IMG/VR virus record: IMGVR_UViG_3300005613_000046
Coordinates: 8,052-72,051 of that record
DNA: 64,000 bases
Reading direction: 5' to 3' (one strand)
From: a virus
This document shows, one piece after another, positions 1 through 37,115 of this stretch. The notes beneath the pieces were generated by a model. It did no database searches, was not told the origin of the DNA, and was given only the letters and a program-made list of their open reading frames with translations. Each line of letters begins with the position of its first letter. The first letter of the stretch is position 1. The position numbers were made by a program, and so were the translations under genes.

Positions 1-2573
1 ACTTCAAAATAGTCTGAGTTATGTTCGGTTGCGGTTTTCCACTCTAAAGATATAATATTATTATTACAAGATCCATCAAATGATAATAACTCAACAGGAA
101 GGGCTGACACTCTCGTTACGGTAATTGTTCTTAAATTATTATCCACACCACAATTAGAATTTGTATTAACATGAATATAATAACTACCCGTTGCAGGTCC
201 TGTAAATGAAACTGGTTGTGTTCCTTGAGTAACTAACGCTCCTTGTGGTTGTCCCATTCTTATTGTTAAATGATCCGTAGATACTGATGAGGTTGCAATG
301 TATTGTTCGTTGTTAAACCCGTTATACCAATGAGCGTATTGACCTGATGGGTGTTGTGGTATTGTCATTGTTGGTTGTTGCATAATTGGCATTGCCTGTT
401 GATTAAATTGTGTTGTATTTGAAACCGTAATCGGAAACGCTGCCAATGAAGATGAACAGGCACTTCCAACTTGATAACTAACAATCACTCTTGCGAAACT
501 ACCTGATAATCCACTATTGTTGTTTCTTAAACCAAAACAACTTGGTGGATTTGTTATTCTAAATTGATTTGTCCCATTAGAAATGTAATTTGCTGGGTTC
601 ATATTCAACGTAAAAATTGGGTTTATACCGTTTGAACAACTACAATGATTAAGAGTATTAAATGTTGGACCATTAACATTATTTAATGTGGTTGTTCTTG
701 TTCCTGCTTGACATTCAACACCAACAGACAATTGAATTTGAACTGATGTAATTACGGCTCCTGCAGGTAAACTACTATTCCAATTAAACCCTGTTTGACC
801 TGAACACCCATTATAATATGATCCGGTTCCACATGATGATGACATATTGAAAAGTGATCCTATTGAATTGATATTAATTGTTGTTGTTTGATTTTGAGGT
901 TGACTTTGTATTCCAACATAATATGTCGTATTATTATTAAGTTGAGGTGTTGTATATGTCGCACCTGTCCCTAATTGTCCAGTTCCATTTGAATTTGAAT
1001 ACCAAACGATGTTGTTTCCTCCTGATGCGGTCAATGTTGTTGAATTACCTAAACACACCACAGAGTTTCCGTTTACCGTTGGTGCCGCCAATGGATTTAC
1101 ATTTACCGTAACTGGTGTTGATGAACTAACACAAGGACCGCTCGTTGATGTTAAATAGTAAGTCGTGTTTGTAGTTAAATTTGGTGTTGTATATGAACTT
1201 CCAGTTCCAAGTGATGTTGTTAAATTTGAATTTGAATACCAAGTAATAGTTCCTGTTCCTGATGCATTTATTGTTGCTGGTGATCCACAACTTGTGGAAG
1301 CACCATTTGATGTTGGTGCCGATATTGGATTTACATTTACCGTATATGCCGTTGGTTGTGAATTACACCCACTTGAATATGGATATGTTATTGTAAAATA
1401 CGCCTGAAATGAATATCCACAGATATTATTTACACTTGATGATGAGTTAAATGAGACTTGTATACTTCCGTTTGATGCCCACGAGTTTACGGTAGCTGCT
1501 GGTATACTATATGTTGCAGTTCTCCATGTAGATGAACATTGACCTCCACCCCACACATTTCCTAAACTTCCTGACTCACCAATTACATTTACCCATTCTG
1601 TTGAGTTATCAATATCCCCTCTGATATAAACCGTAAGTGTTGCGTTACCTGAAGCGTTTGCCGGTGATGATGATACCAATGTTGTTACACTTCCAGGAGT
1701 GCTATATGATGTCATAATATTTGAGGATTGAGTATAAGTTCCACTACCTCCTGCCGCAGATCCTGATGTTACATAAACCGTTGAGTTAGATGTTGGTGTC
1801 GGTATTGTATAATTGTTTCCTGTTCCTAATAGTCCTGTTCCATTTGCGTTTGACCACCACTGATAATTTCCACTACCTCCTTGAGCATTTAAAGTTGTTG
1901 ATTGTCCGCAAGTTGTATTAAATGATTGTGCTGTGGGTGCTTGTGGTCCGTTTGTGACCGTAATTGTGGTTGATGCACAAGTTGATGACCATAATCCATT
2001 CGCATAATTTCTTGCATAATATGTGGTTGTTGAATTGGGTGTCACATTTACTGAAGATCCTGTTGCAAACTGACCTGTAGTTCCACAACCATTTGTAAAC
2101 CAGTATGTTGTTCCGATAGAATTATTCGCAGTTAACGTTGTTGATTGACCTTGACATATACTATTTGTATTTGATGATATTGAAGATGGTGGTTGTGTTT
2201 GAAGGGCCGAAGAACATGAATTTGGTGGATATGTCCAAACTGGAGGTGTTGAGTATGCGTTTGTTGCTAGTATAAGTGCTCCCGTAGCATTTGGTCCATT
2301 GTAAACTCTGTAATAGTTTTCATAAGACCATCCTCCACCATAATACCTAATTGATATTGATTGTCCTTGAAAAACATTAAAGTTATAGGTCACCGGTCCG
2401 TATCCACTTGATAGTGTATAATTCCCATAAGTCATTACACCATTTAAGTATATTCGAATATATCCGCCATTCCAACCATCACCATAGGTGTCTCTTAGTT
2501 GAACCGAATATGTGCATTGTGAAAAGACGAAACTTGTAAAAAAAACAAAAATCGATAATAATAAATTCTTCAT
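1..2573 (-). CDS. Secreted Ig-like repeat protein resembling Bacteroidota T9SS cargo; partial, runs off the left edge (>857 aa)
   Basis: Absent from the ORF track. Hand translation from ATG 2573 gives signal-peptide-like MKNLLLSIFVFFTSFVFSQ, then DTYGDGWNG and Ig-like units (TLTA..W..TTTYY). The same frame at the window edge reads ALPVELLSFDGSC..LEWKTATEHNSDYFEV, a motif typical of T9SS-secreted proteins. Confidence 0.85.
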   Translation of the reverse strand, partial: MKNLLLSIFVFFTSFVFSQCTYSVQLRDTYGDGWNGGYIRIYLNGVMTYGNYTLSSGYGPVTYNFNVFQGQSISIRYYGGGWSYENYYRVYNGPNATGALILATNAYSTPPVWTYPPNSCSSALQTQPPSSISSNTNSICQGQSTTLTANNSIGTTYWFTNGCGTTGQFATGSSVNVTPNSTTTYYARNYANGLWSSTCASTTITVTNGPQAPTAQSFNTTCGQSTTLNAQGGSGNYQWWSNANGTGLLGTGNNYTIPTPTSNSTVYVTSGSAAGGSGTYTQSSNIMTSYSTPGSVTTLVSSSPANASGNATLTVYIRGDIDNSTEWVNVIGESGSLGNVWGGGQCSSTWRTATYSIPAATVNSWASNGSIQVSFNSSSSVNNICGYSFQAYFTITYPYSSGCNSQPTAYTVNVNPISAPTSNGASTSCGSPATINASGTGTITWYSNSNLTTSLGTGSSYTTPNLTTNTTYYLTSTSGPCVSSSTPVTVNVNPLAAPTVNGNSVVCLGNSTTLTASGGNNIVWYSNSNGTGQLGTGATYTTPQLNNNTTYYVGIQSQPQNQTTTININSIGSLFNMSSSCGTGSYYNGCSGQTGFNWNSSLPAGAVITSVQIQLSVGVECQAGTRTTTLNNVNGPTFNTLNHCSCSNGINPIFTLNMNPANYISNGTNQFRITNPPSCFGLRNNNSGLSGSFARVIVSYQVGSACSSSLAAFPITVSNTTQFNQQAMPIMQQPTMTIPQHPSGQYAHWYNGFNNEQYIATSSVSTDHLTIRMGQPQGALVTQGTQPVSFTGPATGSYYIHVNTNSNCGVDNNLRTITVTRVSALPVELLSFDGSCNNNIISLEWKTATEHNSDYFE

Positions 2574-2662
2574 TGCGTATAAACTTGTTTAAGTAAATTT
2601 AACGCTCACTTGAAGAATCTTATTGGAAACCCCCATCTACCATGGGCCGGTCGAGACTACTA

Positions 2663-2670
2663 ATAAATAC
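2663..2670 (-). promoter_or_regulatory. RTATTTAT motif (putative late promoter)
   Basis: GTATTTAT about 90 nt upstream of ATG 2573; the same motif precedes many genes in the window. Confidence 0.5.
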
Positions 2671-2733
2671 GAAGAAATACGTAATAAGGATATATTACTT
2701 TAACTCTATTGAGCAAAACCAACTTTTGATTTA

Positions 2734-3129
2734 TTATTTCTTTACTTTAACAATTTCAACCGTGTCAACGGGTTCCAATGTTACGTCAATAACACCTCTT
2801 TTTAAGAAATTAAGTTGTTTTGCAGTTCCATAACTAAGATCAATAAGAATTGATGATGACCTTGGAAGTCTATCATTTACCTTAACAAAACATACAGAGT
2901 CATTATTCAAATTAGTAACTTTTAGTATTGTTCCGAACTTAAAGTATTTGTGTGCTGCAGTCAAACTATCAGAATAAAACCTTTCACCAGACGCCGTAAG
3001 TCTTCCTGTCCAATGTTGTCCGTAGTATGTCGCCTTACCTTTATACACTATCGGATCTGAAGAAACAAAAGAAATTAGAAAGGTTGATAATAAAATTAAA
3101 ATTATTTTATTTAAAATTTTTGTAGTCAT
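2734..3129 (-). CDS. rlpA: RlpA-family (DPBB) lytic transglycosylase with signal peptide
   Basis: GKATYYG, GRLTASGE, LTAAHK, FGTILKVTN, VNDR and IDLS motifs; start placed at MTTKIL (3129). Confidence 0.88.
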   Translation of the reverse strand: MTTKILNKIILILLSTFLISFVSSDPIVYKGKATYYGQHWTGRLTASGERFYSDSLTAAHKYFKFGTILKVTNLNNDSVCFVKVNDRLPRSSSILIDLSYGTAKQLNFLKRGVIDVTLEPVDTVEIVKVKK

Positions 3130-4360
3130 AAGTTGTAGATATTTTTCTTTTACCATATTTTTTTTCCATTATTTGTTGATGAAGATCCCAATTTAAAATT
3201 GATTCACTAACAGGTTGATCATCATCTTTCGCCATTGCATATAATTTTCCAATTTTCTTTAACATTTTGGTTGACACGTAATTAAATTTTTCAATTTCAT
3301 CTTCAAAAAATTTGATCGGATTGTTTTCGTATTTAATTACATAGTTTAAAAACTTTTTTCTAATCTCATCCGTTTTTTCTAAAGCTTTAACTTTTTCTTC
3401 CGCTCCTGAAGGTAGTAAACCAAGTTGTCCTCCAAATCTTAAAATGTCATCCATGGCATGTTCTGTCATTGCCATAAACATTTTCATTTTGTTATTTACT
3501 AGATCAATATAGACAAGTTCCAAAACCCGATTTATTTTTTCATCAATTGTCATATCAGACGGATCTTCACCTATATGATCAATTAGTGCATCTAATCTAT
3601 CTTCACTTCCTTTTAATTGTGAAATAAAATCATCGAATGTAAAGTTTTTAATTTTTAACAATTCATTATATACTCTGTTGTTTTCTAAAAACTCTCTGAA
3701 CTTTGATTTTGTGATATTTTTTCTTCTAAGTTCATAAGCAACTTCTGTTGGTCTAACAAGATTTTCAATTCCTGATATATAATACAGATATCTAAAGAAA
3801 ACTCTATCAATCACCGGTATTCCAAAAGTTCCTCTTATTTGAGTTGCTTGGTATTCAGCATCAGGACCAATCAAACCATATAGTTTAGCTTGTTTATCGT
3901 ATTTGTGTTTAATCTCATGAGCCAAAGAAGAAACATATTCATCTCTTTCTTCTTCCATTTTACGAATAAGACCTTCTGGTGACCAATTTTCACCAACAGC
4001 AAAAGTTATACTCAATTCCAATTTGGTTGATGGTTCGTTTTCTTTCATGAATTTATCCCTGTCGAACCCAAATCTTCCTCCCATTCCCATTTGAACGATG
4101 TCCAAAACTCCTTCTTCATCTTCAATCTCTTCAATAGTCACGGTAAGTTCATATGAATCCACTTTTATCTTCTTTTTATCACCTAACTCAAATTCAATAT
4201 CACCATCAAATACATATTCATCTTGTATTGTGTCAATTGATTTAATGTCTTTTTCAACAACATCATATAACATGTCGGCAGCATCCAAAATATTATCAGG
4301 AACCCCTAACGCTTCAGTAATAAGTCTCAATTGACTTTCGGTGATTAAAATATTTTTCAT
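3107..4360 (-). CDS. Putative virion-packaged protein with HExxH zincin motif
   Basis: MKNILITESQLRLITE leader; LAHEIKH motif; ATATTTAT at 4365-4372 directly upstream. Confidence 0.6.
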   Translation of the reverse strand: MKNILITESQLRLITEALGVPDNILDAADMLYDVVEKDIKSIDTIQDEYVFDGDIEFELGDKKKIKVDSYELTVTIEEIEDEEGVLDIVQMGMGGRFGFDRDKFMKENEPSTKLELSITFAVGENWSPEGLIRKMEEERDEYVSSLAHEIKHKYDKQAKLYGLIGPDAEYQATQIRGTFGIPVIDRVFFRYLYYISGIENLVRPTEVAYELRRKNITKSKFREFLENNRVYNELLKIKNFTFDDFISQLKGSEDRLDALIDHIGEDPSDMTIDEKINRVLELVYIDLVNNKMKMFMAMTEHAMDDILRFGGQLGLLPSGAEEKVKALEKTDEIRKKFLNYVIKYENNPIKFFEDEIEKFNYVSTKMLKKIGKLYAMAKDDDQPVSESILNWDLHQQIMEKKYGKRKISTTYDYKNFK

Positions 4361-4386
4361 AATAATAAATATATTGGGATTGTAAT

Positions 4387-5040
4387 TTAACCCACAACCC
4401 CAACTAATTCATCCAAATGATGATCAACATCTATTTCAGATTTTATCGGTCTTAGATCCATCATATGAACAATCTCGCTTAAACTATATGGGTGATAATT
4501 GTTTCCATCAACACCAACATCAAGTCGTTTACCTTGACCCCACTTATGTTTACTAGACAAATGAACGTGTCCGTGTAAGTGAATTGACCCTTTATTTAAT
4601 TCATTCCAACTTGATAATGGATAATGACACATCACAAAGTTTTGTCCGTAAATTTTAACTTGTAGATAATCAGATACACTACTGAATCTTTCTTGAATAT
4701 TTTCTCGATTGTTTCGTATATGATGATCGTGATTTCCTAATACAAGGTGAATATTTTTACAAATTAAACGATCTAAAAACTTACCAACATTTTCAAATCC
4801 ACCAAAACTAATGTCACCCAACATAATTAATGTATCGTATTGTCCAACTTTTGAATTGATGTTATTTACCAATACGTCATTCATTTCGTCTATTGATTGA
4901 AAATCCCTTGTAGAGTTAATTGGAATTTGACCGTCTTGAGTTCTCCAATTTGTTACACCTCTACAAATATTTTTATGACTATAGTGAATGTCTGAGGTAA
5001 CCCAAACTTTTCCTGTTACTAATATATCATCAAATTTCAT
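4387..5040 (-). CDS. Calcineurin-like metallophosphoesterase
   Basis: SDIH, LGD, GNHD, HYP and HGHVH motifs. Confidence 0.9.
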   Translation of the reverse strand: MKFDDILVTGKVWVTSDIHYSHKNICRGVTNWRTQDGQIPINSTRDFQSIDEMNDVLVNNINSKVGQYDTLIMLGDISFGGFENVGKFLDRLICKNIHLVLGNHDHHIRNNRENIQERFSSVSDYLQVKIYGQNFVMCHYPLSSWNELNKGSIHLHGHVHLSSKHKWGQGKRLDVGVDGNNYHPYSLSEIVHMMDLRPIKSEIDVDHHLDELVGVVG

Positions 5041-5429
5041 ACTAATTTAATTTGGAATCGATTTTTCATTTGTTCTATTTTGTCTTCAGGAACTCCGTGT
5101 TGGTTGGTATTTCCATGACGATTTTCTACTATGACACTAAAGACCATATATCCATGTTCTTTTGCAAGTTCAAAATATGGTTCCATTTCCCACTCTTGTG
5201 TGAAGGTATTGGACACCGCAATTTTTTTAATACCCGATGTCATCGCATGTCCAACAAACTCTTGGCATTCTTTATGAGCCTCTTTTATTTCTGAGGGGAC
5301 AAAATTATAATTACCATCATTATCATAAAAATAATGATCGGCTTCAAATACGTTTGCCGTCAATTGTTTTGCAAATGTAGTTTTACCTGAACCCGGTATT
5401 CCTCTAACTATGTATAGTATTTTTTCCAT
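5037..5429 (-). CDS. P-loop kinase (AAA_33 / polynucleotide-kinase-like)
   Basis: RGIPGSGKTT Walker A; EAD, SNTF and HGVP motifs; 4-nt overlap with the phosphoesterase gene. Confidence 0.85.
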   Translation of the reverse strand: MEKILYIVRGIPGSGKTTFAKQLTANVFEADHYFYDNDGNYNFVPSEIKEAHKECQEFVGHAMTSGIKKIAVSNTFTQEWEMEPYFELAKEHGYMVFSVIVENRHGNTNQHGVPEDKIEQMKNRFQIKLV

Positions 5430-5433
5430 GATA

Positions 5434-5441
5434 CAAATATA
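5434..5441 (-). promoter_or_regulatory. Bacteroidota-type -7 element TATATTTG
   Basis: TATATTTG-TATC-ATG matches TAnnTTTG; no clear -33 element. Confidence 0.6.
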
Positions 5442-5460
5442 ATAAAAAAAATCGCATAAA

Positions 5461-5484
5461 AAAAGGGAGATTAATCTCCCTTTT
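5461..5484. terminator. Intrinsic terminator
   Basis: AAAAGGGAGA-TTAA-TCTCCCTTTT perfect inverted repeat flanked by A/T tracts. Confidence 0.8.
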
Positions 5485-5500
5485 AAACTAATTATTAAGA

Positions 5501-6391
5501 TTAAATATATTGATCAAACTGACTTGCATCAAACGATGATGTGCTCGTGTCGAAACCTCCACCACCTTTGAATTTCACTTCTTCAGGTTTTGAGGAATCT
5601 TTTGATGGTGTAGTTCCACAAATATTTTTAATAATATTTCCTGACAAACTACCCTTTTCATCTTTATATTTCACACCTTCAATTTGGAATATTTTATTTT
5701 TACAACCAAACCATCCAAACCTTCCATCGGGTAATCTAAAACTAGCACCATTTTTGTCTTGTTTAAATGCATATCCAGTCCCTTTTGGTATTTTTATAGT
5801 CGTTCCTTTTTCTGATTTAACAATATAATCATTTTTTTGACTATATGATTTTCCACCACCAACAGCCTCAGCACCATAAGAGGTTTTTTTATCTTTTGAT
5901 TGACTTTTTGCCAATTTGATTGCCGGTTCTAATGGTTTATAAACATATTCTCTCCATTCACTATCCATATCAATATCACCATCAATAGCATCAAATAAAG
6001 ATTCCGCATAAGTATTTTTATATAAAAAACTTGCTCTACAAAGATCGGGAATTGTCTTAAATTTACCCAAATTTTGTTTTAACATATCTTCATTTGTTCC
6101 GGCCCCCTGTAATGATTGGAAAATAGAAACATTTATTTTTTCAAGTTCACTATTGCTCATAGTTGGTTTTCCCATGTCTTTAGATCCACAAGATTTAAAA
6201 ATCTTTTTAACACCTTCCATTGTTCCATCAGAACTTAAAAGATACACCATAGCTGCGGGTCCTGGCATTGCTAATGCAAGAGTTCCTGTTACAGCGGTTC
6301 CTATAGCATCTTTCACATCACCTACACTATATTCTAATAATATAAATTTTAATTTATCGTATTGTCTTTCGGTTAGTATTATTTTTCTCAT
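5501..6391 (-). CDS. Leader-bearing protein with one annexin-like repeat
   Basis: MRKIILTERQ leader; SLQGAGTNED...LYKNTYAESLFDAIDGD resembles the annexin GxGT(D/N)E...Y..SL..I repeat. Confidence 0.6.
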   Translation of the reverse strand: MRKIILTERQYDKLKFILLEYSVGDVKDAIGTAVTGTLALAMPGPAAMVYLLSSDGTMEGVKKIFKSCGSKDMGKPTMSNSELEKINVSIFQSLQGAGTNEDMLKQNLGKFKTIPDLCRASFLYKNTYAESLFDAIDGDIDMDSEWREYVYKPLEPAIKLAKSQSKDKKTSYGAEAVGGGKSYSQKNDYIVKSEKGTTIKIPKGTGYAFKQDKNGASFRLPDGRFGWFGCKNKIFQIEGVKYKDEKGSLSGNIIKNICGTTPSKDSSKPEEVKFKGGGGFDTSTSSFDASQFDQYI

Positions 6392-6402
6392 ATTTACATT
6401 AT

Positions 6403-6981
6403 TTAACTAAATGTCACATTTTTTTCATATGCGGTTAATGGTTCTGCCTTTGGTTCTTGAGTGTTTACATCTCCAACGTTAGAAACAACGGATTCTGGTT
6501 TTGCACCAACACCATGAATTTTTTTGGTTGGTGTTAATTTACCTTTACAAGATTCGAATGCGCTAATAGTTTTTGAACCAATTAAACCATCTTCAACTAA
6601 TTTCACTTTTAATATTTCTGTCGGACATTCGTCGTTTAATCTCACTTGCATTTTCAAAACTTTTTCATTACAGTTTGGTTTTTTTCCTGCACATGTCATT
6701 GTCGTATATCTACCTGAAGCGACGTTAGTCGTAGGTTGTCCTTGAGGTGGTGTAACAGTAACTGTTGGATTTTGAGCGGTATATTCAGCCGCTGTCGCTG
6801 GCTCAGAACCTAACGGTGGTGATTTATAACCAGTAAGTTTTATAACTTTTCCTGTTTGGTCTTTATAATATTGAACGGGTTCTTCTTGTTCAAAAACATA
6901 ATTGTTTTTGGTTGCAGTTTCATGCATATTCAAAATTCGACTTCTTTCGTTTTCATTAATCACAAAAAGATTTTTTTTCAT
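6403..6981 (-). CDS. Leader-bearing protein with PG_binding_1-like motif
   Basis: INENERSRILNMH leader; VLKMQVRLN...EDGLIGSKTISAF; GTATTTAT at 6997-7004. Confidence 0.55.
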   Translation of the reverse strand: MKKNLFVINENERSRILNMHETATKNNYVFEQEEPVQYYKDQTGKVIKLTGYKSPPLGSEPATAAEYTAQNPTVTVTPPQGQPTTNVASGRYTTMTCAGKKPNCNEKVLKMQVRLNDECPTEILKVKLVEDGLIGSKTISAFESCKGKLTPTKKIHGVGAKPESVVSNVGDVNTQEPKAEPLTAYEKNVTFS

Positions 6982-7013
6982 ATTTGACTTTTTATAATAA
7001 ATACAACAAAAAC

Positions 7014-7047
7014 AAAAAAAGGTGAGTAATTCTCACCTTTTTTTTTT
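7014..7047. terminator. Intrinsic terminator
   Basis: A7-GGTGAG-TAATT-CTCACC-T tract. Confidence 0.8.
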
Positions 7048-7104
7048 GAGTCGACACTGAATGTGTCATTTCTCCACCACTTTGTTTTTATTAGAACAAA
7101 GAAA

Positions 7105-7539
7105 CTATTGTCTTTCCATCCAAATTCTAATCGAATTTTGATTAGTAAAATAATTCTTGAACTGACAATTTTCTAATAACCCTTGTGTTAAATTGTAATC
7201 ATACATCGGACCACTTATATGTCCCCAAGGTGTATTGTTCAATGTCAAAGTAAAATTAAATTGACTTGGATAAAAATTATATGTTGACTGAACTCCGTTG
7301 AATGAATAAACAGAATTTGAAATAAAGACAAGAGTGTCAGATCTTAATTCCTGATTAAAACTCGTGTTCAATATTTTAGTTATAACCCACGTTTGACCCT
7401 TCAAAGACACCGTAGAATCAACTGAAGTTGTGTCAGTGATGATTGGTTGTGGACTCAAAGGTTGTTGAGGTGTAACGTCTTCTTTAACACAAGATGTGAT
7501 TAAAGAAATTAAAATTATTAAAAATGATAAATATTTCAT
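7105..7539 (-). CDS. Lipoprotein of unknown function
   Basis: Hydrophobic signal ending in lipobox LITSC; beta-rich mature region. Confidence 0.7.
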   Translation of the reverse strand: MKYLSFLIILISLITSCVKEDVTPQQPLSPQPIITDTTSVDSTVSLKGQTWVITKILNTSFNQELRSDTLVFISNSVYSFNGVQSTYNFYPSQFNFTLTLNNTPWGHISGPMYDYNLTQGLLENCQFKNYFTNQNSIRIWMERQ

Positions 7540-7540
7540 A

Positions 7541-7816
7541 CTATACTAATGTTTCGATTTTATTTCTTACTTGTTCTCCTATTGACACTTCTTTAACGTT
7601 TGTTAAAATCAAAGACTCTTTTAAAATTTTATGAGGAATGTGAACCAAAAAGGTATTTCCATCAAAATAAGATAAGTCTTCTTTTAGATTTAAGGCACCA
7701 TCAACCATTTTCAAAAAGATCTTAAATTGAATTGGATCCACAAAAGACTCATTTAAAAGGTCTCCGAATTTTTCATTAACGATCGTGATTGTATGTTGAA
7801 ATGTTGATTTTATCAT
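7541..7816 (-). CDS. Hypothetical protein
   Basis: 91-aa ORF with its own promoter, coupled to the next gene. Confidence 0.65.
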   Translation of the reverse strand: MIKSTFQHTITIVNEKFGDLLNESFVDPIQFKIFLKMVDGALNLKEDLSYFDGNTFLVHIPHKILKESLILTNVKEVSIGEQVRNKIETLV

Positions 7817-7831
7817 GGTGTTTTATTTCTA

Positions 7832-7862
7832 CAAATATACTAATAAAAAGAATAACTACAAA
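7832..7862 (-). promoter_or_regulatory. Bacteroidota sigmaA promoter
   Basis: TTTG-N19-TATATTTG. Confidence 0.75.
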
Positions 7863-8279
7863 CTATTTTAAAACTTTTTTTAATAAGTCCAACAATTCTT
7901 TGTTTTCATCTTGTTGTGGAATATCACTTTGTTTGTGGTATTTACATGCGGTATGTTCAAACCCATCTTGAGCCATTTCTAAATCAGGATTTAATTCATC
8001 TTCGGTTTCTTTAAAGAATACAAACATATGTCCCTTTTTTGTCCCATCTTTTTTGAATTTATCAATAAACCCAACAAATTCTATTTTTGGATCTAATTCA
8101 ATATTTGTTTCTTCATAAAATTCTCGAATAGCAGCTTGACCTGGTGATTCACCATCTTCAATCTTTCCTGATGGTATTGACCAAACATTTGGCATTGACT
8201 TATCAGGAGCTCTTTTACATAATAAAACTTCATCATTATGTTTTAATATAATACCCGCCCATTTTTTAAAGTTAACCAT
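7863..8279 (-). CDS. Nudix hydrolase
   Basis: Nudix box GKIEDGESPGQAAIREFYEETNI. Confidence 0.9.
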   Translation of the reverse strand: MVNFKKWAGIILKHNDEVLLCKRAPDKSMPNVWSIPSGKIEDGESPGQAAIREFYEETNIELDPKIEFVGFIDKFKKDGTKKGHMFVFFKETEDELNPDLEMAQDGFEHTACKYHKQSDIPQQDENKELLDLLKKVLK

Positions 8280-8281
8280 AG

Positions 8282-8295
8282 ATATTTATAAATAT
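8282..8295. promoter_or_regulatory. Palindromic double ATATTTAT element between divergent genes
   Basis: ATATTTATAAATAT is a perfect palindrome spanning most of the gap between ATG 8279(-) and ATG 8294(+). Confidence 0.6.
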
Positions 8296-8635
8296 GAAAG
8301 TAAAAATAAATAACAATCTTTTTGATGTTAAAACTTTATTAACTTCCAAAGATACTCAAAAAGGTATGATGGGTAAAAAATTTAATGGGTTTGACGGAAT
8401 GTTATTCTTTATGAAAAAAGAACCACATTCTTTTTGGATGAAAAATTGTGTGGTTCATTTAGATATTATTTTTATTAATGATGATTCAATCGAAAAAATT
8501 CATCACAACTGTAAACCTTGTATGTCTGAAGACTGTGATCGTTATGATGGTTATGGTGATTTAATTTTGGAACTTCCTGGTGGAACTTGCAAAAAATATG
8601 ACATCAAAGAAGGTGATAGTATAGATTTACTTTAA
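8294..8635 (+). CDS. DUF192-family protein
   Basis: GMLF, FWMKN, LDIIFI and LELPGG motifs. Confidence 0.85.
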   Translation: MKVKINNNLFDVKTLLTSKDTQKGMMGKKFNGFDGMLFFMKKEPHSFWMKNCVVHLDIIFINDDSIEKIHHNCKPCMSEDCDRYDGYGDLILELPGGTCKKYDIKEGDSIDLL

Positions 8636-9481
8636 TCCCTCTATTTTAACTTGTTTTTTCTCATCAACAAATGACTGAACTCTTCCTCTTGCAACATCAC
8701 AATAATTCGGTGAAAGTTCGATTCCCAACCAACGTCTGTCTAAAATTTCCGCGGCGACTAAACTAGTTCCGCTACCAGCGAACGGATCCAAAATTACATC
8801 GTTTTTATATGACAAGATTTTAATCGCCTTGGTCGGTATGTCCATTGAAAAGGTTGCCTTAGTCAAAGATTTAGTGTCGGCAAAATAATTCCACTGACCA
8901 AAGACAAGTTCCATAAACTCTTTTTTATCATTCTCACTATAAACCATTTTATTTCTTTTGGTTCCGTCTTCTTTTTCAACTTCAGTTAATTCACCAGTCC
9001 ATTCGGGTTGTCCTTTAACTTTTTTAATATGTTGTTTTTTATATGCTAAAATAACACACTCCTTCGGGTTATAGATATAAGGACTTGATGGACTCATCCA
9101 TGATCCCCAAGCTGTAGTCTTACTTCTATGTGGTGATTGTTCTTCTAAATCAACGATCCCAAAAAAACCATAACCGATCTCTTGCATAATTCTCCACATC
9201 TCAGCCACAAAAAATATACGACCACCTTTTTTCTGTCTGTTAATTTCATATGGAATGTTAAGGGCAATTCTTCCATCATCTTTCAATAATCTATACGCCT
9301 CGCTCAACCAATTTTTTGCAAACTCTTGATAATCATTAAACTCCATATCATCTTCATGAACATCATAGTCAATACCTACCCCATAAGGTGGTGAAGTCAC
9401 TATAAGGTCAACTGATCCTTCAGGTAATGTTTTCATCACCTCAACACAATCCCCATTTATTATTTTTTTTGTTTCTATCAT
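8627..9481 (-). CDS. N4-cytosine/N6-adenine DNA methyltransferase (beta class)
   Basis: TSPPY motif IV near the N-terminus; DPFAGSGT motif I near the C-terminus. Confidence 0.92.
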   Translation of the reverse strand: MIETKKIINGDCVEVMKTLPEGSVDLIVTSPPYGVGIDYDVHEDDMEFNDYQEFAKNWLSEAYRLLKDDGRIALNIPYEINRQKKGGRIFFVAEMWRIMQEIGYGFFGIVDLEEQSPHRSKTTAWGSWMSPSSPYIYNPKECVILAYKKQHIKKVKGQPEWTGELTEVEKEDGTKRNKMVYSENDKKEFMELVFGQWNYFADTKSLTKATFSMDIPTKAIKILSYKNDVILDPFAGSGTSLVAAEILDRRWLGIELSPNYCDVARGRVQSFVDEKKQVKIEGLK

Positions 9482-17647: not shown

Positions 17648-17678
17648 CAAAGATATGTAATTTTTGATAAATACCAAA
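17648..17678 (-). promoter_or_regulatory. Bacteroidota sigmaA promoter
   Basis: TTTG-N19-TATCTTTG. Confidence 0.75.
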
Positions 17679-20223: not shown

Positions 20224-20260
20224 AATACAAAGATAAGAAAATTTTAGATAAACACCAAAA

Positions 20261-33974: not shown

Positions 33975-35321
33975 TTACTTTTTATATGATAATACTCTTG
34001 TGTTTTCTTCTTCTTTAGATTCTTCTGGAGTGACTCTAACTTCAATTATCTTTTCAACTTCTTTGATTACTTCAACAGGAACCTCAACGATCTTTTCAAC
34101 CTCAACAATTCTATCAACAGGAACCTCAACGATCTTTTCAACCTCAACAATTTTATCTACAGGAATGTGAATAATTTTTTCAACCTCAGTTGGGACTTCA
34201 ACGATCTTTTCAACTTCTCTAATAACTTCAAAGGGAACTTCACGAACAACTTCAACAACTCTATCAACAGGAACTTCACGAACTACTTCAACAACTCTAT
34301 CTACAGGAACTTCAACTATTTTTTCAACTTCCACAATCTTTTCAACCTCAACGATTCTATCAACAGGAACCTCAACAATCTTCTCAACTTCCACAATTTT
34401 TTCAATAACTTCAGGTTCAACTTGTGGTGTATCGATGGGATAAAAATAACTTTCAGGAACCTCAACTTCATCTTGAAACGGGTATTCTTCATATTCAGGT
34501 TTAATCTCGTCCTCTTCTTTTCTTCTGAAATGTTTGAATGCTTGGTTTGTTGAAATCACAAGGGCTATTGCCAAAGGATCGAAAACAAAAATCAAAGTTA
34601 GAATAAAGAAGTTTGCGGTTTTTTTAATTTCCCATCCTGTAATTTCACTTAGATATTTAATGGCTCCTAACTCACCAGTTTCAATTTCTTTTGACGAAAT
34701 GTCCAAAATCTGAATATCCAAATTTGTAATACTATCATTTAACGCATCAATTCTTGATGTAATAGTATCTCTATTTTGTTGAGCAATTTTTAATTGTGAT
34801 TCAAAAGCTCTTCTATTTCCAGCATTTGCTCTTGTCACAACTTGACCTGATTGTCTATCTACACTTTGTGTTGTTGTATTTGTTGAAAGGGCGTTTCTTA
34901 AACTTGTTATATCTTTATCTAACCCTTTCTTTTCTTTTTGATATTCTTTTTTGATTTCTTCAAATCTTCCTTTTTTTACCTCAATATTTTCAACTTTTTT
35001 ATTGTTAATCTCAAGACCCGCAATACTTTTTTGAAACCCTGTCGCCAAAAGTCCGTAAATACCTATGGAAGTTAAAATCGATAATGTGACAAGTGCCAAT
35101 GTTAGATATGTTTTTAACACACCATAAACTTTAGTCCAACTATCGTGAAGATAAGTGGCGATCGCCATTTTGGATATTTCTAAAAATGATCCCATTATAA
35201 TCACAGGGATTGCAACTCCTGAAAATATGATTGAAAGTCCGTATACACTATAATATGCCGCAGTTCCTGATAGTCCAAGTGCGCAGAACAATAAGAGCCA
35301 TGGTAAAAATTTACTATTCAT
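33975..35321 (-). CDS. Multi-TM coiled-coil protein with alveolin/articulin-like VPV repeats
   Basis: Three N-terminal TMs, a coiled coil, a TM (FVFDPLA), then EKIVEVP/EVVR repeats; ATATTTAT at 35334-35341. Confidence 0.75.
   Translation of the reverse strand: MNSKFLPWLLLFCALGLSGTAAYYSVYGLSIIFSGVAIPVIIMGSFLEISKMAIATYLHDSWTKVYGVLKTYLTLALVTLSILTSIGIYGLLATGFQKSIAGLEINNKKVENIEVKKGRFEEIKKEYQKEKKGLDKDITSLRNALSTNTTTQSVDRQSGQVVTRANAGNRRAFESQLKIAQQNRDTITSRIDALNDSITNLDIQILDISSKEIETGELGAIKYLSEITGWEIKKTANFFILTLIFVFDPLAIALVISTNQAFKHFRRKEEDEIKPEYEEYPFQDEVEVPESYFYPIDTPQVEPEVIEKIVEVEKIVEVPVDRIVEVEKIVEVEKIVEVPVDRVVEVVREVPVDRVVEVVREVPFEVIREVEKIVEVPTEVEKIIHIPVDKIVEVEKIVEVPVDRIVEVEKIVEVPVEVIKEVEKIIEVRVTPEESKEEENTRVLSYKK
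34030..34420 (-). repeat. Coding tandem repeats (VEKIVE / VPVDRIVE)
   Basis: Imperfect 18- and 24-nt units, e.g. aacctcaacgatcttttc. Confidence 0.85.
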
Positions 35322-35445: not shown

Positions 35446-36069
35446 ATGAAAAATTTAATTAAAAATATTTTAAATGAATATTTTAATGAAAAAAATATAA
35501 TATTACGTGAGATAAATTTACCTGATAGAATTTTTAATTTATTAATCACAGAAGGAACTGCCACAGTAAAGATACCAGAAGGGTTGGAGTCTTCATTAAA
35601 AAAATACATTTCTAAAAAATTTAATTGGCCTCCCACTGTCGATTCAAAATGGTGTAGTGATATAAAAGAAAAAATTAATAAAGATGGGAGACTAGTTAAA
35701 TCTTGTAATAAAATATTCGAAATTGAATTGACTAATCATTGGTTAAAAAGACTTTTTAGAAAAAACGAACCTGAATACCAAAAAGGCGGAAAATTTCAAA
35801 ATAAAAAATTTGAAAACCCAAAGAAAACCGAGGGTATTGATTTATTTTTCAATAGTTCCAAAAAAATAAATGATTTTATAGATAATTCTCATAATTGGCA
35901 AGTCAATGATTCAAAACTTATATTATTAACTGATTTAAGTAATAAGTATCAAGTTATAATAGAGTTAAAAAAAGAAAAAAGATCAAATTATATTGCAAGG
36001 TTTATAACACAAATTAAGGGTGAAAAATTTTTCGATACACCAGAATTAAGAAAATCAATAAGATTATAA
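35446..36069 (+). CDS. Leader-bearing basic protein
   Basis: MKNLIKNILNEY..ILRE..LITE; ATATTTAT at 35433-35440. Confidence 0.65.
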   Translation: MKNLIKNILNEYFNEKNIILREINLPDRIFNLLITEGTATVKIPEGLESSLKKYISKKFNWPPTVDSKWCSDIKEKINKDGRLVKSCNKIFEIELTNHWLKRLFRKNEPEYQKGGKFQNKKFENPKKTEGIDLFFNSSKKINDFIDNSHNWQVNDSKLILLTDLSNKYQVIIELKKEKRSNYIARFITQIKGEKFFDTPELRKSIRL

Positions 36070-36095
36070 AAAAAGGGTGGATTTTACTCCACCCT
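36068..36095 (-). terminator. Intrinsic terminator of the candidate ncRNA
   Basis: AGGGTGGA-GTAAAA-TCCACCCT followed by a U tract on the minus strand. Confidence 0.85.
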
Positions 36096-36272
36096 AATTG
36101 ATTTCATATCGAGAAATCGGTCGTCCATTGGGCTGTGTATGGATAAGCCGGTGATCACCACATTTCTGTGTATTCAGTGAATGTCCCTCTTTTTCGATCA
36201 CCATAACCCTACCTAAGCAGGATTATGAAACTTTTTTAATGGAAAGCCACAAAACCAATTGTCTAATTCAAC
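36096..36272 (-). ncRNA. Candidate structured ncRNA (closing stem plus three hairpin arms)
   Basis: Own consensus promoter and terminator; the 5' and 3' ends pair; three internal stems; locally higher GC. Confidence 0.6.
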
Positions 36273-36276
36273 ACTA

Positions 36277-36307
36277 CAAAGATAATACAATTTTTTAAAC
36301 CGCCAAA
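36277..36307 (-). promoter_or_regulatory. Bacteroidota sigmaA promoter driving the candidate ncRNA
   Basis: TTTG-N19-TATCTTTG. Confidence 0.75.
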
Positions 36308-36314
36308 AATTATT

Positions 36315-37115
36315 TTATAAATAGTCAAATAATTCAGAAGAGTCGTTTCGTAGTCGACGAAGAGCCTTTTCTTTGATCTGACGAACTCTTTCTTTGGTTA
36401 GACCAAAGTCTGAACCAATGTCCTCCAAAGTTCGTGGTGTCCCACTTAAACCAAAGTAATCGGCTACGATAACCTTCTCACGATCATCCAATACGTGTAA
36501 AAGTTTCATTAACTTATCTTTTAGAACATCTTTGGTGTCAAATACCGCATCAGGTAATTCGGCATCCTTATTCTCAATCATATCAATCAAAGTATCACCA
36601 TCTTCATTAATATTCATATCAAGATCTATTATTGAAGGTAGTGTTGAAAACTTATCCTCAAGTTTTTTTCCTGATTGTTCCACCTCTTTTTTTGCCCTTT
36701 GTAGATCTTGAACTACATTGACCGGTAGACGAATTGTTCTTGCGTTATCATTTAACGATTGAATGATTGATTGTTTGATCCACCATACACCATAAGAAAT
36801 GAAACGTAAATCTTTGTTCCAATCAAAGTTTTTAATCGCCTTCATAAGTCCAAGGTTTCCTTCAGCAATAAGATCTGACATATCAAGTCCTTGATTTTGA
36901 TATTGTTTTGCAACCGTAATAACAAAACGAAGATTTCCTTCAATAAGTTCCCTTTCTATTCTTTTTCGTTCAGATGTGGGAGTATCTTCTGACTTCATTT
37001 TTTTTGCCAGTTCTCGCTCTCGTTCTGCAGTCATTACCTTAATTTTTCTAATGTCTCTAAGGTAGTGTTGAAGTTCGTCTTGATTAATGTGTGCTCCTGT
37101 GTTTTTGTCTTTCAT
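36315..37115 (-). CDS. rpoD: RNA polymerase sigma-70 factor, Bacteroidota RpoD/SigA type
   Basis: YLRDI, NLRFVITVAKQYQNQG, DLIAEGNLGL, RFISYGVWWIKQ, RTIRLP and TKERVRQIKEKALRRL motifs; no region 1.1. Confidence 0.95.
   Translation of the reverse strand: MKDKNTGAHINQDELQHYLRDIRKIKVMTAERERELAKKMKSEDTPTSERKRIERELIEGNLRFVITVAKQYQNQGLDMSDLIAEGNLGLMKAIKNFDWNKDLRFISYGVWWIKQSIIQSLNDNARTIRLPVNVVQDLQRAKKEVEQSGKKLEDKFSTLPSIIDLDMNINEDGDTLIDMIENKDAELPDAVFDTKDVLKDKLMKLLHVLDDREKVIVADYFGLSGTPRTLEDIGSDFGLTKERVRQIKEKALRRLRNDSSELFDYL

Follow-up and report, generated by a model that had tools for sequence, protein, structure and literature searches.

The window analysed here, a 64,000-nucleotide (nt) stretch of viral DNA (positions 8,052 to 72,051 of the IMG/VR virus record IMGVR_UViG_3300005613_000046), carries on its minus strand, at 36067-36307, a structured RNA gene consisting of a promoter, a structured part of about 200 nt and an intrinsic terminator. 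The source record is 72 kb long with an estimated completeness of 25%, and the window is therefore a fragment of a very large phage. What stands there is a genuine gene for a folded RNA, absent from earlier catalogues and carried by uncultured freshwater Bacteroidota phages; it meets, tail to tail, the gene of a 207-residue ORFan protein, here called p207. Among the roles considered, we favour one in which the RNA binds and restrains an RNase-like p207, the two forming a type III-like toxin-antitoxin pair carried by phages; this reading is held tentatively, at somewhat less than an even chance.

The case for the RNA rests on its conserved helices. In a plain MAFFT alignment of ten variants, fitted to no structure and used to score the helices of an original prediction made from this sequence together with alternatives to them, standard pairs fill 93.6% of the 409 cells, a share that drops to 33-46% when the partners are slid by 1-3 columns; both sides have changed in 28 of 41 pairs, and none of 500 shuffles matched the observed pairing or covariation score. 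Alignment of 16 copies (15 distinct) to a covariance model gave 93.1% paired cells, against 34-45% with slid partners, and compensatory changes in 32 of the 41 pairs; copies of one clade are related, and such cell counts overstate the number of independent events. Covariation of the stems among homologues, which the original prediction had named as a way of checking it, is thus found in both alignments.

Seven helices (P1a, P2, P3, P3b, S1, S2 and P5) are kept across the family, in the order 5′ U-rich tail, P1a, P2, P3 three-way junction, pseudoknot, P5 and terminator. As read from the alignment, the conserved architecture is a row of domains, not a four-way junction. In the window its parts are the following:

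36248-36262, minus strand: U-rich 5′ segment AAUUGGUUUUGU, conserved; pairs with 36096-36108 in this lineage only.
36230-36247, minus strand: hairpin P1a (36243-36247 with 36230-36234); 86.7% of cells paired, three of five pairs changed on both sides (UA to CG).
36202-36227, minus strand: hairpin P2, 11 bp, loop UUAG; 91% of cells paired, ten of 11 pairs changed on both sides.
36151-36201, minus strand: P3 domain (stem 36196-36201 with 36151-36156); 98.9% paired, four of six pairs changed on both sides.
36187-36195, minus strand: purine-rich joiner GAAAAAGAG, within the P3 domain.
36170-36174, minus strand: AAUAC of the P3 domain, with a variable hairpin between the joiner and AAUAC.
36167-36170 with 36159-36162, minus strand: hairpin P3b, loop GAAA, followed by GGU; 98.3% paired.
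36124-36149, minus strand: H-type pseudoknot (S1, 36146-36149 with 36131-36134; S2, 36139-36143 with 36124-36128).
36100-36118, minus strand: hairpin P5 (36113-36118 with 36100-36105); 83.5% of cells paired, six of six pairs changed on both sides.

The 5′ segment, unpaired in the family fold (GGUUUU or GGGUUU), is conserved in all 16 aligned copies, and P2, drawn as an 11-bp hairpin in the original prediction, is present, covarying and kept though its letters vary between clades. Two of the predicted arms survive in part. The GUGAUC/GAUCAC stem is conserved as P3, while the family has, in place of its inner ACAUU/AAUGU stem, the conserved hairpin CACA-GAAA-UGUG (P3b, 4 bp, with a GAAA loop in most copies); in the CGG..UCCAU/AUGGA..CCG arm, UCCAU/AUGGA is conserved as S2 (98.7% paired, three of five pairs changed on both sides), while zero to two of the three outer CGG/CCG pairs form in the other nine variants. 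The suspected pseudoknot between GGCU and a loop AGCC corresponds to S1, which is 98.3% paired and has changed on both sides in four of four pairs; since the model did not include S1, this stem had no influence on the alignment. The best-conserved unpaired letters are the joiner GAAAA(A)GA, AAUAC before P3b, GGU after P3b and CG after S2.

The 13-bp closing stem of the original prediction (P1) was rejected as a family feature. Its pairs form completely (12 of 12) in the window and in L007 only, against 5-8 of 12 in the other eight variants; its duplex energies are no better than those of shuffles in most copies (in the window −9.4 against −7.6 ± 2.5); and it clashes with the conserved P5, whose 3′ strand is the one that it needs. 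The closing stem is not conserved, and therefore neither is the predicted four-way junction, although the minimum free energy (MFE) fold of the window's RNA reproduces that drawing. The MFE fold of 36068-36270 has −58.1 kcal/mol against −44.6 ± 4.7 for shuffles (z −2.87; two of 200 shuffles fold as well), and the roughly 200 nt between promoter and terminator are GC-poor yet highly pairable.

Homologous loci were gathered through relatives of the neighbouring sigma protein (80 kept of 162), through relatives of the convergent protein p207, and through scans of viral, metagenome and genome collections for short conserved DNA patterns. The pattern scans returned mostly chance matches: 30 stretches with no new variant, 15 stretches of which five hold the RNA, and three stretches of which one does; a scan yielding 89 stretches found it in L082, L084, L085, L086, L137, L147 and L206. 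Copies were identified by profile search and then with the covariance model (R1), which scores 175.3 bits (E-value, E, of 3e-48) on 36092-36262 and finds this one copy only in the whole 72-kb virus record. The copies comprise those of the window, the L007 type, the L060 type, L109, the L091 type, the L137 type, L100 and L090, and further those of L228, L229 and L230 (tandem pairs), L231, the L232 type, L238 and L242, as well as a tandem pair on a Flavobacteriales genome contig (L134, alias G001:C37). In all, 16 homologous copies were collected, 15 of them distinct, and all sequences come from uncultured material.

The original prediction recognised no known family in the element, and the searches agree. 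Rfam 15 (4227 models) at gathering thresholds gave no match in the window and none in ten related loci; at E up to 10 it gave sub-threshold chance rows only, the best being istR with 19 bits against a threshold of 45. ARAGORN detected neither tRNA nor tmRNA. Cultured phage records hold no match to the 1.8-kb region, nor to p207 as a protein, and the L238 RNA finds in them chance matches of terminator size only. A search of 250 other genomes from the same order (Flavobacteriales) and its relatives did not turn up the RNA, and a literature search found no description of it or of p207. Three Flavobacteriales genomes show weak model matches of 23-27 bits (L224:1501-1643, L225:1501-1642 and L226:1501-1658), with a P3-like stem and a GAAAA(U/A)GA joiner and without the pseudoknot; these are either chance matches or very distant bacterial relatives. 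The element thus adds to the known repertoire a well-supported, structured and pseudoknotted RNA family absent from Rfam.

An open reading frame (ORF) of 36 codons at 36094-36204 had been noted as a caveat to a non-coding role. This frame is open in the window only; in the 15 other aligned copies it meets a stop after 2-17 codons or lacks a start (in L007 it reads MMIKK-stop), which settles the caveat in favour of the RNA. A frame of 13-17 codons ending in EMW is common to six or seven copies, overlaps the covarying helices, and is broken in the window, in L007, in L134b and in the L228-L232 group. On these alignments the element is treated as non-coding, and the broader proposal is supported, namely that of a structured RNA gene complete in itself, with a promoter of host type and a terminator of its own. 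The gene and its neighbours are arranged as follows:

36277-36307, minus strand: promoter of the Bacteroidota type, TTTG-N19-TATCTTTG, by pattern match.
36067-36272, minus strand: whole RNA gene, about 200 nt, from the predicted start to the end of the U run.
36067-36095, minus strand: intrinsic terminator, an 8-bp GC-rich stem (36074-36095) followed by a seven-U run.
36315-37115, minus strand: upstream neighbour, a sigma-70-family gene with regions 1.2, 2 and 4 (phrog_351).
35446-36069, plus strand: downstream neighbour, the convergent gene p207, encoding a 207-residue ORFan.

Both transcription signals lie where the original prediction had put them. The promoter motif is kept in homologues (in the alignment and in L238, L245 and L249), and transcription probably starts at about 36270-36274. 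The terminator touches the stop codon of p207; in most homologues its hairpin lies between an A run and a U run and can terminate in both directions. Nearly all copies are accompanied by promoter motif and terminator; the L137 copy has lost its terminator, and the second copy of the bacterial contig is without a promoter of its own. RNA-library data were consulted at contig level in four runs, from libraries that can hold DNA and in contigs that show neither ends nor strand. One contig of 151 letters is identical to 36141-36291, thus extending into the promoter, and another of 164 letters spans 36066-36208 with four differences; the p207 region has no cover in the four runs, which under the rule for such data counts as no finding. 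The two short contigs over parts of the RNA neither prove its transcription nor map its ends.

The RNA is tightly linked to p207. In 15 of 15 distinct p207 contigs, the window included, tblastn and the RNA model together place one or two copies of the RNA directly past the p207 stop on the opposite strand, with p207 protein identity falling to 36% among these contigs. Six more loci with p207 relatives of about 25-30% identity give matches of the model to the AAUAC-hairpin-GGU core at the expected place and on the expected strand (six of six, at weak E-values of 0.08-1), and this core is the block recovered in all distant relatives. Two of the six, L245 and L249, were read by eye; both show the promoter, the P3 junction with a GAAAAU-type joiner, an H-type pseudoknot of the same topology as in the window with different letters, and the terminator. 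Compensatory differences separate the two (GUUGGU/ACCAAC against UUUGGU/ACCAAA, and CUCGGA/UCCGAG against CUUAAC/GUUAAG). These most distant relatives are without P1a and P2, and the minimal core is therefore the P3 domain plus the pseudoknot. Altogether, the RNA abuts the 3′ end of a p207-family gene in 21 of 21 contigs, a count that covers the loci reachable by pattern scans, and it does so in several genomic contexts: between the sigma gene and a gene for a 448-residue membrane protein; about 15 kb from the sigma gene, on the contig of L021/L090; and, in L228, next to a gene whose exonuclease motif, read by eye, marks it as that of a family-B DNA polymerase.

The p207 family comprises 88 sequence clusters in an exhaustive profile search, and its members are basic (isoelectric point 9.64 in the window, 8.4-9.6 in the family); p207 has no match in Pfam, PHROGs, PDB sequences or the ESM Atlas. 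A full-length structural model, with a predicted local distance difference test (pLDDT) score of 80, gave weak matches, none above Z 4.3. Residues 88-207, the C-terminal domain, modelled from a 72-sequence alignment, reached a pLDDT of 97, and the best 17 matches of a VIA-align 2 search (pdb_via_wide), at Z 4.1-5.7, are all RelE, ParE, HigB or YafQ toxins, CdiA-CT RNase, T4 RegB or colicin-type RNase. The fold compared has two helices and then an antiparallel sheet of three or four strands. CdiA-CT RNase is matched with a Z of 5.7 and a root-mean-square deviation (rmsd) of 3.5 over 87 aligned residues, and T4 RegB with a Z of 4.9 and an rmsd of 3.9, likewise over 87 residues; at rank 50 the Z is 2.6. 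The best Foldseek matches are HigB2 (E 0.02) and RelE1 (probability 0.8). H98 and R105 do not vary across the 72 sequences, and P125, K191 and G192 hardly do. The reading of this domain as an endoribonuclease domain of the RelE/HigB/RegB/CdiA-CT type (BECR-like), with a His/Arg/Lys active site, is thus moderately supported, and this pattern of conserved residues would fit a metal-independent RNase site. The N-terminal domain of about 88 residues has two conserved cysteines, and the ORF list of the window offers no small protein gene beside p207 as a conventional antitoxin. At least 88 sequence clusters, none of them annotated, make up the protein family with which the RNA is linked.

Within this context, the binding-and-restraint reading is favoured because p207 is never found without the RNA while the RNA is found alone, the asymmetry expected of a toxin and its antidote. 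L007, whose lineage has lost p207, shows more broken pairs than any other copy. Among the functions guessed in the original prediction, an antitoxin-like role comes closest to this gene context, with its invariable pairing with a RelE/RegB-like protein gene. The sporadic, movable distribution also fits, as does a tandem RNA pair beside a restriction island. On contig G001:C37 (L227, 10979-11347) two diverged tandem copies lie at the contig end, convergent with a 194-residue membrane-anchored ORFan, and the genes at 210-8983 form a type I restriction-modification (R-M)/GmrSD island with a helix-turn-helix gene, HsdM, HsdS, GmrSD and a split HsdR; this Flavobacteriales contig may reflect a transfer from phage or may be chimeric. 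As proposed, the RNA would be made early and abundantly from its host-polymerase promoter and would bind p207 through its conserved core, namely the P3 three-way junction with its GAAAA(A)GA joiner (GAAAAAGA), the AAUAC-hairpin-GGU block and the pseudoknot. Such binding would restrain the nuclease or set the time at which it acts, in the way that type III toxin-antitoxin systems use their RNA antitoxins. In phage genomes the pair would travel as one unit, selfish or competitive in nature, and the RNA-only copies, including the tandem pair by the restriction island in the Flavobacteriales genome, could then be orphan "immunity" copies.

Several observations weigh against this proposal. No sequence profile links p207 to any family (no Pfam match at E up to 10 for 22 members, and no PDB sequence match at E up to 10), and its fold match is weak, the Z of 4-5.7 lying below the tool's caution line of about 8. 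The model matches of the six distant loci are individually insignificant (E 0.08-1), with the architecture read by eye in L245 and L249 only. Binding, toxicity and neutralisation are proposals, and the architecture, one long RNA with convergent genes, is unlike every described type III system. The linkage itself can stem from inheritance of a two-gene cassette sharing one terminator. Moreover, in five lineages the RNA has no p207 relative within the stretches covered, even by profile search (the L007 type, the L137 type, L100, L238/L242 and the bacterial contig), and the persistence of these intact copies means that the RNA must have value alone. In L238:6001-6634 and L242:4270-4829 the context is T4-like, with a head-completion gene (phrog_218), p207 is absent, and the RNA is convergent with a gene for a gp55-like late sigma factor (phrog_234, E 1.8e-6). 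The proteins p140 (L137), p170 (L100) and p194 (bacterial contig) were rejected as hidden p207 relatives: a profile search finds none among them and hhalign probabilities are 0.07, 30 and 0.3, respectively, the p170 match covering the N-terminal 26 residues only. By eye only, p140 shows an H-x3-R-x2-R-PE resemblance.

The same RNA-only copies are what speaks for a stand-alone decoy or sponge, which would occupy a host factor (a defence protein, a ribosomal protein or an RNase) while p207 merely shares its cassette and terminator. Intact RNA without p207 in L238/L242, L100, L137 and the bacterial contig, the strong host-type promoter, and the tandem pair beside the type I R-M/GmrSD island would all follow. 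This account, which we consider unlikely though it is the strongest of the alternatives, leaves it unexplained that, at protein identities of 25-100% and in several contexts, every p207 gene found comes with the RNA; the RNA also shows no likeness to a host RNA family in Rfam and, as noted, was not found in the other genomes of the order and its relatives. The converse idea, that p207 needs the RNA as its cofactor, scaffold or guide in an RNA-protein enzyme and is not inhibited by it, would explain both the 21-of-21 linkage and why p207 is never alone, with the conserved unpaired blocks as possible contact sites. It leaves the RNA-only copies unexplained, no extended variable "guide" segment is present (the variable parts are paired hairpins), and no RelE-fold nuclease is known to use an RNA cofactor; we judge it improbable.

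The large pseudoknotted fold, the invariant junction nucleotides and the terminator directly after them could also belong to an orphan riboswitch-like sensor, whose ligand would set the choice between stopping at the terminator and running on antisense into the convergent gene (in L007, sense into the next gene). Tandem copies exist, and in the window and L007 one strand could pair either with the 5′ strand or within P5. That competing closing stem is not conserved, however, and no conserved anti-terminator pairing was found; the terminator stems vary freely between clades and are strong and bidirectional in most copies; no Rfam riboswitch matches; and a co-directional gene follows the RNA in the L007 lineage only, the next gene being convergent elsewhere. 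A sensor is, on balance, a slightly poorer candidate than a cofactor.

The original prediction placed the RNA directly downstream of the sigma factor gene and guessed at a modulator acting on RNA polymerase or on sigma, a role that would resemble that of 6S RNA. Adjacency is the sole support for this guess: the RNA directly follows a sigma-70-family gene in the window, L007 and L109, and the gp55-like late sigma gene convergent with it in L238/L242 makes two unrelated sigma types. The position is not a defining one. Among the 80 related sigma loci, taken with up to 3 kb on each side, the RNA is present at five (L006, L007, L008, which is cut, L060 and L063), while the other 75 give a single 16-bit model row; two genes separate sigma and RNA in L060 and four ORFs in L137 (a 76-residue ORF and three cytosine methyltransferase genes), and in L228 and L090, as in other phages, the RNA lies elsewhere, far from sigma. 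Nor does its fold, a row of hairpins with a three-way junction and a pseudoknot, resemble the long interrupted rod of 6S RNA with its central, open-promoter-like bubble, and no 6S model matches. The link to sigma is incidental, and a sigma or polymerase modulator is accordingly a very poor prospect.

Poorer still is a base-pairing small RNA with the conserved U-rich 5′ tail as its mRNA seed, a notion that draws on the conserved unpaired 5′ segment; L245 and L249 are without the 5′ part yet keep the core, and the elaborate conserved fold exceeds what a seed carrier needs. Least probable of all is a self-cleaving ribozyme or a message for the 36-residue peptide, for which the compact pseudoknotted fold, the ORF in the window and the EMW frame in six copies might be cited, since ribozyme models give no match even with E relaxed to 10 and both frames are broken among the copies as described above.

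Several further features of these loci were recorded. The extended promoter motif TTTGG...TATCTTTGTA occurs twice more in the window, at 17648-17678 and 20228-20259 on the minus strand, each time 10-25 nt 5′ of the ATG of a protein gene, and promoters with this motif are probably a phage early class read by the host polymerase. The 448-residue membrane protein encoded downstream (33975-35321, minus strand) has C-terminal repeats of VEKIVEVPVDRIVEVE-like units, and no Pfam family was found for it. Between sigma and RNA, L137:8195-10835 and L060:4756-5589 hold one to three tandem DNA cytosine-5 methyltransferase-like genes (by motifs read by eye); the L060 slot also holds a gene with repeated KYDYS-type motifs, and the gene content of the slot is variable.

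A different element of about 110 nt, with a terminator and without a promoter of its own, directly follows the sigma stop in L009:3802-3940 and at 43 other sigma loci (for example L013, L015, L019, L033 and L053). Its motif GGGT[CT]GAACCGAGAT is present in 44 of the 80 sigma loci, RNAalifold on 12 copies gave 30 pairs, seven of them with compensatory changes, and no Rfam family matches it. Two more promoter-bearing non-coding stretches occupy the post-sigma slot, ACGGGTAAAGGTCAGAATG at four loci and GTTTGTCGGG at five; they lie about 40-200 nt past the sigma stop in L001-L004, with further occurrences including L002, L004, L019, L066 and L068, and neither ARAGORN nor Rfam detects anything in them. 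The 3′ side of this phage sigma gene thus seems to be a hot spot for structured RNAs.

Covariation-supported structure, unassigned biochemistry and an origin in uncultured sequence only are traits that the RNA shares with the orphan structured motifs of Weinberg-type collections in Rfam and of Fremin/Bhatt-type virus surveys; unlike the orphan motifs catalogued in Rfam, it matches none of the 4227 models of release 15. The main text of a 2023 survey of more than ten thousand viral RNA candidates (PMC10690425) is without sigma, Flavobacteria or Bacteroidetes, and its supplementary tables may list the motif.

On the protein side, RelBE, HigBA and ParDE type II modules have toxins of the same fold class as the p207 domain, by a weak structural match; these toxins are of about 90 residues and have an upstream protein antitoxin in one operon, whereas p207 has 207 residues, is monocistronic, lacks an adjacent small protein gene and matches no Pfam toxin family. 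T4 RegB is a basic RNase, encoded by the phage and active early, whose fold is RelE/YoeB-like (PMC3014915). The resemblance of p207 to RegB is one of fold, with no detectable sequence similarity, and p207 has the extra N-terminal domain of about 88 residues with its two conserved cysteines; RegB is without a known RNA partner.

The closest parallels are the type III toxin-antitoxin systems (ToxIN, CptIN and TenpIN; AvcID and AbiF/RCd22), in which, as here, a protein that is a toxic RNA-targeting enzyme, or resembles one, stands next to a structured, pseudoknotted RNA with no protein antitoxin. The pair described here is likewise sporadic and mobile, in phages and beside a defence island, and an RNA gene adjoins the putative toxin gene, with no protein antitoxin, in all 21 p207-family contigs. 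The differences lie in the layout and in the protein. Type III loci carry a short tandem-repeat array upstream of the toxin gene and co-directional with it, RNA then toxin, which in ToxIN consists of repeats of about 36 nt; here a single unit of about 130-200 nt (two in L228-L230 and G001) is always convergent, and p207 resembles RelE/BECR proteins rather than ToxN/AbiQ, a deaminase or Abi_2. In the case of RCd22/AbiF, a structured RNA motif is reported to bind the toxin encoded next to it directly and so to neutralise it (bioRxiv 10.1101/2025.04.15.648962).

Taken further, the comparison raises the possibility, doubtful at present, of a new class of RNA-protein module, in which one large pseudoknotted RNA, encoded tail to tail with an endoribonuclease of RelE/BECR fold, would take the place of a protein in neutralising or licensing that enzyme, the two forming a mobile weapon-and-immunity cassette spread among freshwater Bacteroidota phages. 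If true, the RNA would be the first RNA partner for the very large RelE/BECR toxin superfamily and an actual case of the "anti-RegB partner" that phage RNases have long been suspected to have; RelE-type nucleases would prove controllable by RNA, and the definition of type III systems would widen. The module is small, at about 830 bp, and, on the same condition, would help to show how large uncultured phages keep their own RNases under control or compete with one another.

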